NCBI RefSeq assembly: GCF_030013595.1
Contig: NZ_CP122768.1
DNA: 64,000 nt
DNA from: Escherichia coli
Lineage (GTDB): Bacteria; Pseudomonadota; Gammaproteobacteria; Enterobacterales; Enterobacteriaceae
Reading direction: 5' to 3' (one strand)
A model generated the notes under the pieces. That model was not told the origin of the DNA, did no database searches, and worked only from the letters and a program-made list of their open reading frames with translations. The position numbers and the translations under genes are program-made. The number at the start of each line of letters is the position of its first letter. The stretch's first letter is position 1. This document shows, one piece after another, positions 16,210 through 30,783 of this stretch.

Positions 16210-17266
16210 GGCTTTGTTGAATAAATCGAACTTTTGCTGAGTTGAAGGATCAGATCACGCATCCTCCCGACAACACAGACCATTCCGTGGCAAAGCAAAA
16301 GTTCAGAATCACCAACTGGTCCACCTACAACAAAGCTCTCATCAACCGTGGCTCCCTCACTTTCTGGCTGGATGATGAAGCGATTCAGGCCTGGTATGAG
16401 TCGGCAACGCCTTCATCACGAGGAAGGCCCCAGCGCTATTCTGATCTCGCCATCACCACCGTTCTGGTGATTAAACGCGTATTCCGGCTGACCCTGCGGG
16501 CTGCGCAGGGCTTTATTGATTCCATTTTTTCTCTGATGAACGTTCCGCTACGCTGCCCGGATTACAGCTGTGTCAGCAGGCGGGCAAAGTCGGTTAATGT
16601 CAGTTTCAAAACGCCCACCCGGGGTGAAATCGCACACCTGGTAATTGATTCCACCGGGCTGAAGGTCTTCGGTGAAGGCGAGTGGAAAGTCAAAAAGCAT
16701 GGCCAGGAACGCCGCCGTATCTGGCGTAAGCTGCATCTCGCCGTTGACAGTAAAACACATGAAATCATCTGCGCTGACCTGTCGCTGAACAACGTTACGG
16801 ACTCAGAGGCCTTCCCCGGGTTAATCCGGCAAACCCACCGGAAAATCAGGTCAGCCGCCGCCGATGGCGCTTACGATACCCGGCTATGTCACGATGAACT
16901 GCGGCGTAAGAAAATCAGCGCGCTTATCCCTCCCCGAAAAGGTGCGGGTTACTGGCCCGGTGAATATGCAGACCGTAACCGTGCAGTGGCTAATCAGCGA
17001 ATGACCGGGAGTAATGCGCGGTGGAAATGGACAACAGATTACAACCGTCGCTCGATAGCGGAAACGGCGATGTACCGGGTAAAACAGCTGTTCGGGGGTT
17101 CACTGACGCTGCGTGACTACGATGGTCAGGTTGCGGAGGCTATGGCCCTGGTACGAGCGCTGAACAAAATGACGAAAGCAGGTATGCCTGAAAGCGTGCG
17201 TATTGCCTGAAAACACAACCCGCTACGGGGGAGACTTACCCAAAATCTGATTTATTCAACAAAGCC
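16210..17266 (+). mobile_element. IS903-type insertion sequence (IS5 family), 1057 bp, complete
   Basis: Perfect 18-bp terminal inverted repeats GGCTTTGTTGAATAAATC (16210-16227 and 17249-17266, reverse complement); single transposase ORF; 9-bp flanking direct repeat; length and end sequence match my recollection of IS903. Confidence 0.9.
16287..17210 (+). CDS. IS903-type DDE transposase (about 307 aa from GTG 16287; ORF track gives 322 aa from ATG 16242)
   Basis: Translation ...[36 protein letters not shown]...AADGAYDT... matches the IS903/Tn903 transposase as I recall it; ORF lies wholly within the IRs. Confidence 0.85.
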
Positions 17267-26704: not shown

Positions 26705-28369
26705 ATGTGTTCAATTTTTGGCGTATTCGATATCAAAACAGACGCAGTTGAGCTGCGTAAGAAAGCACTCGAGCTGTCACGCCTGATGCGTCATCGTGGC
26801 CCGGACTGGTCCGGTATTTATGCCAGCGATAACGCCATTCTCGCCCACGAACGTCTGTCCATTGTTGACGTTAACGCGGGGGCGCAACCTCTCTACAACC
26901 AACAAAAAACCCACGTGCTGGCAGTAAACGGTGAAATCTACAACCACCAGGCATTGCGCGCTGAATATGGCGATCGTTACCAGTTCCAGACCGGGTCTGA
27001 CTGTGAAGTGATCCTCGCGCTGTATCAAGAAAAAGGGCCGGAATTTCTCGACGACTTGCAGGGCATGTTTGCTTTTGCCCTGTACGACAGCGAAAAAGAT
27101 GCATACCTGATTGGCCGCGACCATCTGGGGATCATCCCACTGTATATGGGCTATGACGAACATGGTCAGCTGTATGTGGCCTCAGAAATGAAAGCCCTGG
27201 TGCCGGTATGCCGCACGATTAAAGAGTTCCCGGCGGGGAGCTATTTGTGGAGCCAGGACGGCGAAATCCGTTCTTATTATCATCGCAACTGGTTCGACTA
27301 CGATGCGGTGAAAGATAACGTAACCGACAAAAACGAGCTGCGTCAGGCACTGGAAGATTCCGTTAAAAGCCATCTGATGTCTGACGTTCCTTACGGTGTG
27401 CTGCTTTCCGGTGGTCTGGATTCCTCAATTATTTCCGCGATCACCAAGAAATACGCCGCCCGTCGCGTGGAAGATCAGGAACGTTCTGAAGCCTGGTGGC
27501 CGCAATTACACTCCTTTGCTGTAGGTCTGCCGGGTTCACCGGATCTGAAAGCAGCCCAGGAAGTGGCAAACCATCTGGGCACGGTGCATCACGAAATTCA
27601 CTTCACTGTACAGGAAGGTCTGGATGCCATCCGCGACGTGATTTACCACATCGAAACTTATGATGTGACCACTATTCGCGCTTCAACACCGATGTATTTA
27701 ATGTCGCGTAAGATCAAGGCGATGGGCATTAAAATGGTGCTGTCCGGTGAAGGTTCTGATGAAGTGTTTGGCGGTTATCTTTACTTCCACAAAGCACCGA
27801 ATGCCAAAGAACTGCATGAAGAGACGGTGCGTAAACTGCTGGCCCTGCATATGTATGACTGCGCGCGTGCCAACAAAGCGATGTCAGCCTGGGGCGTGGA
27901 AGCACGCGTTCCGTTCCTCGACAAAAAATTCCTTGATGTAGCGATGCGTATTAACCCACAGGATAAAATGTGCGGTAACGGCAAAATGGAAAAACACATC
28001 CTGCGTGAATGTTTTGAAGCGTATCTGCCCGCAAGTGTGGCCTGGCGGCAGAAAGAGCAGTTCTCCGATGGCGTCGGTTACAGTTGGATCGACACCCTGA
28101 AAGAAGTAGCGGCACAGCAGGTTTCTGATCAACAGCTGGAAACTGCCCGCTTCCGCTTCCCGTACAACACGCCGACGTCCAAAGAAGCGTATCTGTACCG
28201 GGAGATCTTTGAAGAACTGTTCCCGCTTCCGAGCGCCGCTGAGTGCGTGCCGGGCGGCCCTTCCGTCGCGTGTTCTTCCGCTAAAGCGATCGAGTGGGAT
28301 GAGGCGTTCAAGAAAATGGACGATCCGTCTGGTCGTGCGGTTGGCGTTCACCAGTCGGCGTATAAATAA
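26705..28369 (+). CDS. asnB: Asparagine synthetase B, glutamine-hydrolysing (554 aa)
   Basis: ORF track 26624..28369; start at MCSIFGV (N-terminal nucleophile Cys2); PP-loop SGGLDSS. Confidence 0.95.
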   Translation: MCSIFGVFDIKTDAVELRKKALELSRLMRHRGPDWSGIYASDNAILAHERLSIVDVNAGAQPLYNQQKTHVLAVNGEIYNHQALRAEYGDRYQFQTGSDCEVILALYQEKGPEFLDDLQGMFAFALYDSEKDAYLIGRDHLGIIPLYMGYDEHGQLYVASEMKALVPVCRTIKEFPAGSYLWSQDGEIRSYYHRNWFDYDAVKDNVTDKNELRQALEDSVKSHLMSDVPYGVLLSGGLDSSIISAITKKYAARRVEDQERSEAWWPQLHSFAVGLPGSPDLKAAQEVANHLGTVHHEIHFTVQEGLDAIRDVIYHIETYDVTTIRASTPMYLMSRKIKAMGIKMVLSGEGSDEVFGGYLYFHKAPNAKELHEETVRKLLALHMYDCARANKAMSAWGVEARVPFLDKKFLDVAMRINPQDKMCGNGKMEKHILRECFEAYLPASVAWRQKEQFSDGVGYSWIDTLKEVAAQQVSDQQLETARFRFPYNTPTSKEAYLYREIFEELFPLPSAAECVPGGPSVACSSAKAIEWDEAFKKMDDPSGRAVGVHQSAYK

Positions 28370-28380
28370 GACGTATAATA

Positions 28381-28408
28381 TTGCCCCGGAGAAATCCGGG
28401 GCAATTTC
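28381..28408 (+). terminator. Terminator hairpin after asnB
   Basis: TTGCCCCGGA-GAAA-TCCGGGGCAA hairpin followed by TTT. Confidence 0.6.
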
Positions 28409-28680
28409 AGTTACTGGGGCGCTTGTTGATTCTGATATGCAGTAAGGAAATGTTCCGGGTTTGCCACATCACTGTTTGACAACTCATCACTGTAGGCCAG
28501 TATTTCATTGATTAATTTCCCACCACTATTGTTGAATTCCGAATTTCATCCTGTATGACAAAAGAATGGCTGTAGGGTGGGGAAAAAACACAAAGTAAAC
28601 AATAATTGACGAATATAGCGCCACGCTGTTCGCAACCTAACCAAACAGTCACTTTCGAGCAATTTTCCTTGAAAAAGAGG

Positions 28681-28709
28681 TTGACGCTGCAAGGCTCTAT
28701 ACGCATAAT
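28681..28709 (+). promoter_or_regulatory. Candidate sigma70 promoter of the tRNA operon
   Basis: TTGACG, 17-nt spacer, CATAAT, then GC-rich discriminator GCGCCCCGC (stringent-type); AT-rich upstream tract. Confidence 0.6.
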
Positions 28710-28749
28710 GCGCCCCGCAACGCCGATAAGGTATCGCGAAAAAAAAGAT

Positions 28750-28826
28750 GGCTACGTAGCTCAGTTGGTTAGAGCACATCACTCATAATGATGGGGTCAC
28801 AGGTTCGAATCCCGTCGTAGCCACCA
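28750..28826 (+). tRNA. metT: tRNA-Met (elongator, anticodon CAU)
   Basis: 77-nt cloverleaf GGCTACGTAGCTCAGTTGG...CTCATAA...GGTTCGAATCC...GCCACCA with encoded CCA. Confidence 0.95.
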
Positions 28827-28835
28827 TCTTTTTTT

Positions 28836-28920
28836 GCGGGAGTGGCGAAATTGGTAGACGCACCAGATTTAGGTTCTGGCGCCGCAAGGTGTGCGAGTTC
28901 AAGTCTCGCCTCCCGCACCA
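28836..28920 (+). tRNA. leuW: tRNA-Leu (anticodon UAG)
   Basis: 85-nt long-variable-arm tRNA GCGGGAGTGGCGAAATTGGTAGACG...TTTAGG...CGCACCA. Confidence 0.93.
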
Positions 28921-28943
28921 TTCACCAGAAAGCGTTGTACGGA

Positions 28944-29018
28944 TGGGGTATCGCCAAGCGGTAAGGCACCGGTTTTTGATACCGGCATTCCCTGGTTCGA
29001 ATCCAGGTACCCCAGCCA
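28944..29018 (+). tRNA. glnU: tRNA-Gln (anticodon UUG)
   Basis: 75-nt TGGGGTATCGCCAAGCGGTAAGGCACCGGTTTTTGATACCGG...CCAGCCA. Confidence 0.93.
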
Positions 29019-29052
29019 TCTTCTTCGAGTAAGCGGTTCACCGCCCGGTTAT

Positions 29053-29127
29053 TGGGGTATCGCCAAGCGGTAAGGCACCGGTTTTTGATACCGGCATTCC
29101 CTGGTTCGAATCCAGGTACCCCAGCCA
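29053..29127 (+). tRNA. glnW: tRNA-Gln (anticodon UUG)
   Basis: Identical copy of the preceding Gln tRNA. Confidence 0.93.
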
Positions 29128-29142
29128 TCGAAGAAACAATCT

Positions 29143-29219
29143 GGCTACGTAGCTCAGTTGGTTAGAGCACATCACTCATAATGATGGGGTCACAGGTTCG
29201 AATCCCGTCGTAGCCACCA
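29143..29219 (+). tRNA. metU: tRNA-Met (elongator, anticodon CAU)
   Basis: Second copy of the metT sequence. Confidence 0.93.
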
Positions 29220-29267
29220 AATTCTGAATGTGTCGAATAAGTTCGGCAAATTCACAAACCAATTTGT

Positions 29268-29342
29268 TGGGGTATCGCCAAGCGGTAAGGCACCGGATTC
29301 TGATTCCGGCATTCCGAGGTTCGAATCCTCGTACCCCAGCCA
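29268..29342 (+). tRNA. glnV: tRNA-Gln (anticodon CUG)
   Basis: 75-nt Gln tRNA with anticodon loop GGATTCTGATTCC. Confidence 0.93.
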
Positions 29343-29379
29343 ATTTATTCAAGACGCTTACCTTGTAAGTGCACCCAGT

Positions 29380-29454
29380 TGGGGTATCGCCAAGCGGTAA
29401 GGCACCGGATTCTAATTCCGGCATTCCGAGGTTCGAATCCTCGTACCCCAGCCA
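29380..29454 (+). tRNA. glnX: tRNA-Gln with anticodon CUA: amber (UAG) suppressor allele, supE44-type
   Basis: Same sequence as the preceding Gln(CUG) gene except anticodon loop GGATTCTAATTCC; anticodon CTA at 29412-29414. Confidence 0.9.
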
Positions 29455-29461
29455 CATTAAA

Positions 29462-29490
29462 AAAGCTCGCTTCGGCGAGCTTTTTGCTTT
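29462..29490 (+). terminator. Rho-independent terminator of the tRNA operon
   Basis: AGCTCGC-TTCG-GCGAGCT hairpin followed by TTTTT. Confidence 0.8.
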
Positions 29491-29496
29491 TCTGCG

Positions 29497-29607
29497 TTCA
29501 TTCAATGTCGAATGCGATGTTGACACGTCTTATCCTTCAATGTCGGATGCGACGCTGCCGCGTCTTATCCGACCTACGGTTGGCACGCATCCGGCAATGT
29601 TGTAAGG
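29497..29607. repeat. Cluster of REP-like palindromes (BIME-like)
   Basis: Repeated units of the AATGTCGGATGCGACGCTGCCGCGTCTTATCCGACCTAC type, one near-complete and two degenerate. Confidence 0.65.
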
Positions 29608-30783
29608 CTACAACCCTAACGCATATTTCAGCGCCTGACGTTTCAACACGCCAGCACGCTCCGCCGCCATCAAACCAAGATTACGCACAAAACGCAGCGG
29701 CGGCAGATTATTACTGAATCCGGCATAAAACAGATCCATACCGCTCTGCATAATGAAGTTATCCGCCATGCGCCGCATCTGGTAACGCTTGAGGACAGGA
29801 TAACTGGCCCACGCTTCGCCGTAGCTGCGGGCATTCACCAGAACATCAATCAGGGCATCGACATCACGATAACCAAGATTCACCCCCTGCCCCGCCAGCG
29901 GATGGATGGTATGCGCGGCATCGCCCACCAGCGCAAGCCCCGGCTGCACATACTGCAACGCATGGCGACGCGTCAGCGGAAACGCACCAGCGGCAAGCGG
30001 TGTCACGTAACCCAGACGCGACGGGAAATGCTTCGCGATTTCCGCCTGGAGCTGTGCCATATTCATATTCTGCAACTGGCGAATGCGCGCCGGAGAGTCA
30101 TACCACACCAGCGATGCCCAGTTATCAAACAACGGCAGAAACGCACGCGGTCCGTCCGGGGTAAATTGCTGCCAGGTGCTGTCGCCGGGATCGTTCTCAC
30201 ACTGTACGCTAATCAACATACACGACTGTGCATACTGCCAGGCATGAACGCCAATTCCCGCCATCTGCCGCACCTGCGAATTTGCGCCGTCGGCACCAAT
30301 CACCAGCTTCGCGCGGATCGTTTCACCGCCCTTCAGTTCCAGCTCCTGAAGATCATTATGGCGATGCAGCGCAATCAGCGAGCCTGGCACACGTAACGTT
30401 ACTTTCGGATGCGCTTCCAGCGCCTGCCACAGCGCCTGTTGCAGGACAGTGTTTTCCACCATGTAGCCAAGCAACGGTAGCTTAAGTTCAGCGGCGTCAA
30501 ACACCACATGCGCCGTTTCCCACTCCCACGTTTCCAGTCTGCGGTAAGGATGGCAACGCATAGCCTGTACTGCATCCCAGACCCCTAACCCTTTAAGCAA
30601 TGATACCGAAGCCGCACTAATCGCCGAGATCCGCACGTCCGGCTGGCTGTCAGCGACAAACGGTGCAGGTTGGGCATGTTCGATAACCATTACCGAAAAT
30701 CCGTGCTGAGCCAGTCCCAGCGCCAGTGCGCCGCCGACCATTCCTCCGCCGACAATGGCAATTTCCGTTGGTTGATTTGTCAT
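29608..30783 (-). CDS. ubiF: Ubiquinone biosynthesis flavin monooxygenase UbiF (391 aa)
   Basis: ORF track 29608..30789; N-terminal FAD-binding GGGMVGG. Confidence 0.93.
   Translation of the reverse strand: MTNQPTEIAIVGGGMVGGALALGLAQHGFSVMVIEHAQPAPFVADSQPDVRISAISAASVSLLKGLGVWDAVQAMRCHPYRRLETWEWETAHVVFDAAELKLPLLGYMVENTVLQQALWQALEAHPKVTLRVPGSLIALHRHNDLQELELKGGETIRAKLVIGADGANSQVRQMAGIGVHAWQYAQSCMLISVQCENDPGDSTWQQFTPDGPRAFLPLFDNWASLVWYDSPARIRQLQNMNMAQLQAEIAKHFPSRLGYVTPLAAGAFPLTRRHALQYVQPGLALVGDAAHTIHPLAGQGVNLGYRDVDALIDVLVNARSYGEAWASYPVLKRYQMRRMADNFIMQSGMDLFYAGFSNNLPPLRFVRNLGLMAAERAGVLKRQALKYALGL

Follow-up and report, generated by a model that had tools for sequence, protein, structure and literature searches.

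The known promoter of the seven-tRNA metT operon of Escherichia coli: core elements, mapped start, and conservation across Enterobacterales

The tRNA operon and its genomic setting

Seven tRNA genes lie on the plus strand of the 64,000-nt stretch of E. coli DNA analyzed here (hereafter the window; contig NZ_CP122768.1), each identified from ARAGORN, Rfam, and the MG1655 annotation: metT (28750-28826), leuW (28836-28920), glnU (28944-29018), glnW (29053-29127), metU (29143-29219), glnV (29268-29342), and glnX, here with anticodon CTA (29380-29454). The order of the tRNAs is Met, Leu, two copies of Gln(TTG), Met, Gln(CTG), and the CTA-anticodon tRNA. The cluster ends in an intrinsic terminator on the same strand (29460-29485), an 11-pair stem followed by a T-run; a rho-independent terminator has been described for the metT operon (PMC2241853). 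Upstream, the asnB reading frame ends at 28369, leaving an asnB-metT spacer of 380 nt, and downstream ubiF lies on the opposite strand from 29608. Beyond the seven tRNAs, all Rfam matches in 27500-30500 fall below the gathering score. REP-type repeats occupy 29506-29574, just past the operon terminator, and produce a weak Rfam naRNA4 match (31 bits vs a gathering score of 59.5).

Gene set, gene order, and the flanks asnB and ubiF are as in K-12 MG1655, and the metT region was found in 5424/5426 complete E. coli genomes. The strain itself has a non-K-12 background: across the locus, identity is 98.8% with MG1655 and 99.96% with the pig isolate HCP5S3_I2. Positions 28580-29231 are base-for-base identical to MG1655, so that the entire interval of interest, 28600-28750, is covered. 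The sequence in front of metT is an ordinary promoter, the one already known for the seven-tRNA metT operon of E. coli. This promoter has been known since the early 1980s. It is the metT operon promoter of E. coli K-12 (historically that of the supB-E tRNA operon), present here without any difference, and since it is recorded in RegulonDB/EcoCyc its confirmation adds nothing new to biology. The first-pass annotation had proposed a comparison with the mapped metT operon promoter, and this comparison bears its reading out: the sequence is identical to K-12, and the -35/-10 assignment is that of PMC2760140 Table S1. A full-text literature search with the promoter sequence itself matched no paper.

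Elsewhere in the window, a 1053-bp insertion relative to HCP5S3_I2, the closest genome, occupies 16210-17262. The inserted segment shares 99.9% identity with copies of IS903B (IS5 family) elsewhere, and its insertion point falls within chiP (chitoporin) of HCP5S3_I2. Apart from this insertion, 19 substitutions and one small gap separate the window from HCP5S3_I2 over 48 kb.

The glnX anticodon (29412-29414) reads CTA through a G to A change at 29414, the same anticodon change as in supE44. ARAGORN labels the gene tRNA-Pyl, and RefSeq annotates no feature at 29380-29454. Over 1.1 kb, the G to A change at 29414 is the sole difference between HCP5S3_I2 and the window. The CTA allele is carried by 154/5426 complete E. 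coli genomes, mostly named laboratory or K-12 strains among the 40 matches listed. In the present strain the allele may represent an amber suppressor that is natural or that arose independently.

This allele gives the promoter its local relevance: a CTA (amber-suppressor-type) glnX is the last cistron of a conserved stable-RNA unit in a non-K-12 strain. The suppressor tRNA had been claimed to be co-expressed with the operon at high, growth-rate-dependent levels, and its co-expression is borne out. The operon has one promoter and one terminator, with no promoter-like site inside it, and a Northern analysis detected a full-length transcript that spans the seven tRNAs, the metU-glnV-glnX species being an RNase P product rather than a separate transcript (PMC2241853). 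In the part of the dRNA-seq data of PMC4681348 that covers 695038-696311, an interval that brackets the distal tRNA genes by coordinate conversion, there is no reverse-strand start except a Class II signal at 696311. Since there is no internal promoter and the full-length transcript carries all seven tRNAs, glnX depends on the metT promoter and, having none of its own, is therefore made in fixed proportion to the other six tRNAs. As glnX is the last cistron of a single one-promoter unit, suppressor supply should track those six tRNAs and fall as ppGpp rises. The word "high" holds for this expression in a relative sense only, and the tRNAs of the metT operon are of low to middle abundance.

Core promoter and transcription start

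As the first-pass annotation had it, the plus strand reads exactly TTGACG, a 17-nt spacer, CATAAT, and GCGCCCCGC. The -35 hexamer TTGACG (28681-28686) matches TTGACA at 5/6 positions, the spacer occupies 28687-28703, and the -10 hexamer CATAAT (28704-28709) matches TATAAT at 5/6 positions. The G+C-rich discriminator block GCGCCCCGC follows at 28710-28718, of which GCGCCC (28710-28715) is the discriminator proper for a start at 28716. The hexamers thus score 10/12 at a spacing of 17 nt, within the 17 ± 1 bp expected of a sigma-70 promoter, and the block GCGCCC(CGC) after the -10 is 100% G+C. The second base downstream of the -10 is C (CATAAT-G-C), as in rrnB P1, and the promoter precedes tRNA-Met (start 28750) by 41 nt on the same strand. 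An extended -10 (TGn) is absent, with ACG preceding CATAAT. An alternative pair, TTGAAA (28669) and TATACG (28697), was ruled out by its spacing of 22 nt.

As bare motifs in 64 kb, the hexamers could have arisen by chance, and so could the discriminator. Hexamer pairs scoring 10/12 or more number 6 in the window vs 8.2 ± 3.0 in dinucleotide shuffles, and the 9-mer GCGCCCCGC occurs once vs 1.3 expected. The metT site alone in the window combines hexamers of at least 10/12 with a discriminator of at least 8/9 G+C (0.30 expected; at least one in 26% of shuffles). These counts would allow a reading in which the hexamers are a chance match and the operon owes its transcription to asnB read-through or to a different promoter upstream, and the length of the asnB-metT spacer and an asnB hairpin (28384-28405) without a clear T-run are in its favor. 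We nevertheless regard it as extremely improbable: no second plus-strand site of at least 9/12 exists between asnB and metT, the hexamers and spacer length are invariant across species while the spacer sequence drifts (see below), and a Class I start 6–7 nt past the -10 already contradicts it. What lifts the metT promoter above chance is its position before the tRNA cluster, its conservation, and the published mapping of its start.

Published 5′ ends were converted to window coordinates by setting the beginning of metT at 697133 in NC_000913.3 and applying a +777 offset from U00096.2 to NC_000913.3, a shift that we assume to hold between the two. Romero et al. 2014 (PMC4681348) used differential and global RNA-seq of BW25113, mapped to U00096.2; in that study, Class I starts are TAP-enriched and at the leading edge of transcription. 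Its Table S2 for E. coli lists a Class I start, RVS_(I)-696391, with a range of 696390-696391 on U00096.2. These positions convert to 28716/28715, 7 and 6 nt past CATAAT, and give C28716 on the plus strand as the transcription start and C28715 as a minor one. The first-pass annotation had tied its reading to a start about 7 nt past CATAAT, with which the Class I start agrees, and the literature thus places the 5′-triphosphate end within the approximately 5–9 nt past the -10 expected for sigma-70. Furthermore, a native-precursor primer from the same laboratory (PMC3985628) begins CGCAACGCC, that is at 28716, and so corroborates the +777 offset.

Mendoza-Vargas et al. 2009 (PMC2760140 Table S1) report a single 454 read at -37 from metT (28713), assign the same -35 and -10 (AGGTTGACG and CGCATAAT) at a spacing of 17, and label this promoter "Known". 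The "known" RegulonDB start in that study is 7 nt off; by its sign convention, -30 corresponds to window position 28720. Published 5′ ends scatter, all inside 28713-28720. The available part of the supplement text of PMC4782308 (Cappable-seq) and PMC3415461 holds no entry at the metT coordinates. The PMC4681348 table also gives the Class II signal at U00096.2 696311 (window about 28795, inside metT), which is TAP-enriched but not at the leading edge and is probably an artefact rather than an internal start.

From the present results and published work, RNA polymerase binds TTGACG and CATAAT 17 bp apart and starts at C28716 (minor C28715). A single transcript, comprising a 34-nt leader and the seven tRNAs, extends to the terminator at 29460-29485 and is processed to tRNAs by RNase P and RNase E.

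Conservation from the upstream region to the leader

Loci were fetched, one genome per species, with a pattern placed only in the tRNA-Met 3′ end and the tRNA-Leu 5′ end, and because the search pattern was confined to tRNA genes the retrieval was blind to the promoter. Among 114 Enterobacterales junctions with enough upstream DNA, 112 keep TTGACN-N17-NATAA(T/G), and the 2 without the promoter both follow another tRNA gene within an operon. The spacer is 17 nt long in 112/112 loci and takes 54 different sequences. The -35 is TTGACG in 107/112 and TTGACT in 5/112, with TTGAC invariant, the -10 is CATAAT in 109/112, GATAAT in 2, and CATAAG in 1, and GCGCCCCGC is identical in 109/112. TTGAC, ATAA, and an A5 tract upstream of the -35 are conserved at nearly 100%, and an alignment of 26 genera gives the same pattern from Escherichia to Proteus, Morganella, Budvicia, and the endosymbionts Hamiltonella and Fukatsuia. 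Hexamers and spacing are conserved while the spacer sequence drifts, as purifying selection predicts, and a functional promoter should leave just such a pattern. The comparison provides a reusable map of the tRNA-promoter bases under selection, namely the hexamers, the 17-bp spacing, the A-tract, the discriminator, and the early leader.

Some individual positions and loci stand out. T28700 (-16) and G28703 (-13) are invariant in the 26 genera within an otherwise variable spacer, and they form no TGn motif. Enterobacter mori (locus L080) has CATAAG instead of CATAAT. In Budvicia diplopodorum (locus L019, 10749-11731), the promoter and the tRNA-Met–tRNA-Leu pair are present in two tandem copies, the second of which has diverged to GATAAT, GCGCTGCGC, and an altered leader.

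Upstream of the -35, an AT-rich tract had been put forward as a possible UP element or as Fis sites. The tract (28655-28680) is only moderately AT-rich (62% A+T vs 48.6% in the whole window), but its 22-mer AGCAATTTTCCTTGAAAAAGAG (28658-28679, plus strand, -58 to -37) lies in register for a UP element and matches the UP consensus NNAAAWWTWTTTTNNAAAANNN at 12/15 specified positions, including 7/8 in the proximal subsite. A UP score of 12 is reached by only 0.023% of window positions. The distal T-tract (28663-28666) is conserved at 79–96% and the proximal A5 tract (28672-28676) at 99–100% (107 distinct sequences), with A28673-A28676 invariant and A28672 nearly so in the 26 genera. Fis-like sites, on the other hand, lie upstream of the tract and not in it.

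The first candidate Fis site, a G-N13-C motif GACGAATATAGCGCC (28608-28622), is centered at about -101 relative to the start. Its end bases, G28608 and C28622, do not vary among the 26 genera. All 25 gap-free aligned sequences (25/25) keep G-N13-C there, around a variable center of 71% A+T vs a background of 60%, and their mean match to GNNYAWWWWWTRNNC is 8.4/11. A second block, recognized by its conservation (28628-28646), consists of a G-N13-C motif GTTCGCAACCTAACC centered at about -81 and then CAAAC; G28628, C28642, and A28643 are invariant in the 26 genera and T28627, T28630, and A28644-C28646 nearly so. With 50% A+T, the center of the -81 block is less Fis-like than that of the -101 site, and Fis or Lrp are its candidate ligands. 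In the window, the two conserved sites match the Fis consensus at no more than 8/11, neither strongly, and no G-N13-C occurs at the classical -71 position upstream of metT. Judged from sequence, Fis binding at the two blocks is plausible. According to EcoCyc, via PMC10100675 Table 2, metT-leuW-glnUW-metU-glnVX is activated by Fis and repressed by both Lrp and ppGpp. In the Fis ChIP literature, the text of PMC3064808 gives no tRNA detail and PMC3662779 does not mention metT.

Downstream of the start, a 34-nt 5′ leader (28716-28749, plus strand) ends in an A-run just before the tRNA and is removed by RNase P, and precursors with the 5′ non-coding region are kept in RNase P mutants (PMC2241853). 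Leader positions +1 to +17 (CGCAACGCCGATAAGGT) are nearly invariant, as conserved as the hexamers; their conservation spans Escherichia to Proteus, and the endosymbionts show some changes. Set against the tyrT leader (L124 1166-1147, minus strand), metT 28716-28732 has CCGATAAGG in common, after an identical GCGCCCCGC.

One possibility is that 28710-28732 is kept mainly as a leader RNA element, for example a GCC/GGU hairpin with a GAUAA loop common to the tyrT leader, rather than as promoter DNA. The degree of conservation of +1 to +17 would fit such an element, as would the occurrence of CCGATAAGG at the equivalent position of the tyrT leader and the retention of some pairing in divergent taxa, by one-sided changes in the same register in locus L040, if in shifted registers only in loci L007 (GCUU/AAGC) and L054. 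We consider this reading unlikely, since the leader RNA folds no better than shuffles (z = -0.49) and RNAalifold yields no consensus helix for it, two results on which RNA structure was rejected as the main cause of leader conservation. In addition, the putative stem has 3 bp that are mostly invariant, so that covariation cannot be judged, some variants need a shifted register, and 28710-28715 lie upstream of the start and so are not in the RNA.

Within the metT promoter as read here, it seems rather doubtful that T28700, G28703, and the leader segment CGCAACGCCGAT(G)AAGGT (28716-28732) jointly form a distinct functional element. Possible roles of such an element would be control of promoter escape or of the ppGpp/DksA response, a protein site, or a 5′-end RNA motif. 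The literature searched contained no description of the 28716-28732 leader element, and the conservation of the leader is the sole mildly novel point of this analysis.

Stringent-type architecture and comparison with tyrT and rrnB P1

We are highly confident that the best overall explanation of the locus is the metT operon promoter, giving one transcript and having the architecture of a stringent-type stable-RNA promoter. The stringent-type reading, already made in the first-pass annotation, is supported by the sequence comparison, in which the discriminator equals that of tyrT and is near that of rrnB P1, and by EcoCyc (via PMC10100675), with ppGpp as repressor and Fis as activator. In this architecture, the A/T tracts from -58 to -37 would act as a UP element for the alpha C-terminal domains, and the G+C-rich discriminator, with C two bases past the -10, would give a short-lived open complex inhibited by ppGpp/DksA. 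Through such inhibition, output would follow growth rate and the supply of amino acids, as it does at tyrT and rrn P1, and the conserved G-N13-C blocks at about -101 and about -81 would be candidate Fis sites. The predicted ppGpp/DksA, alpha-CTD, and Fis effects draw on second-hand database annotation and on analogy.

A C two bases past the -10 makes a less than optimal contact with sigma region 1.2, and open complexes are shorter-lived as a result. Haugen et al. 2006 reportedly found that C, not G, at this position makes the non-optimal sigma region 1.2 contact, and Lamond and Travers are said to have relieved stringent control by mutagenesis of the tyrT discriminator.

The metT core is less clearly of the stringent kind. 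Stringent promoters typically, if not strictly always, have a suboptimal core feature that helps to destabilize the open complex, an example being the 16-bp spacer at rrn P1 and tyrT; at metT the spacer is 17 bp in every species, and the sole suboptimal core features are the two single-base hexamer deviations. In the main alternative reading, the promoter is real and strong but stringent and growth-rate control of it is weak or absent, with the G+C block kept for start-site choice, escape, or a leader role. A 17-bp spacer, 10/12 hexamers, and a good UP-like element favor stable open complexes, in contrast to the 16-bp spacers of rrnB P1 and tyrT, and conservation extends past the start to about +17, so that discriminator function cannot explain all of it. 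Three observations nonetheless make this alternative improbable in our view: the metT 9-mer is that of the tyrT discriminator, C stands two bases past the -10 as in rrnB P1, and EcoCyc (via PMC10100675) gives ppGpp as a negative effector of the metT operon. Under the stringent-type reading itself, a consensus 17-bp spacer and 10/12 hexamers leave room for a matter of degree; metT may form more stable open complexes than rrn P1 does and may be less sensitive to ppGpp.

Among known systems, tyrT, the classic tRNA promoter under stringent control and Fis activation, shares with metT the 9-mer after the -10, which is GCGCCCCGC in both, as well as CCGATAAGG in the early leader and G-N13-C sites in the upstream region. 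The tyrT core, TTTACA-16-TATGAT-GCGCCCCGC, differs from the TTGACG, 17 bp, and CATAAT of metT, and the tyrT G-N13-C 15-mer GGATGAAAATTACGC is centered at -71, whereas the metT candidates lie at about -81 and -101 instead. In addition, tyrT starts with G, whereas the mapped metT start is C. The rrnB P1 promoter, the model case of control by ppGpp/DksA, a UP element, and Fis, starts 9 nt past its -10, and metT differs from it in having neither a tandem P2 promoter nor an antitermination box. The G-N13-C 15-mer of rrnB P1, GGTTGAATGTTGCGC, is likewise centered at -71, where Fis site I of both rrnB P1 and tyrT is presumably placed, and fits the layout of the metT blocks. In the core, rrnB P1 reads TTGTCA-16-TATAAT-GCGCCACC, in which GCGCCACC is close to the metT GCGCCCCGC, is G+C-rich, and places C two bases past the -10 as metT does. 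Finally, the UP element of rrnB P1 lies in the same register as that of metT and has the same score of 12/15.
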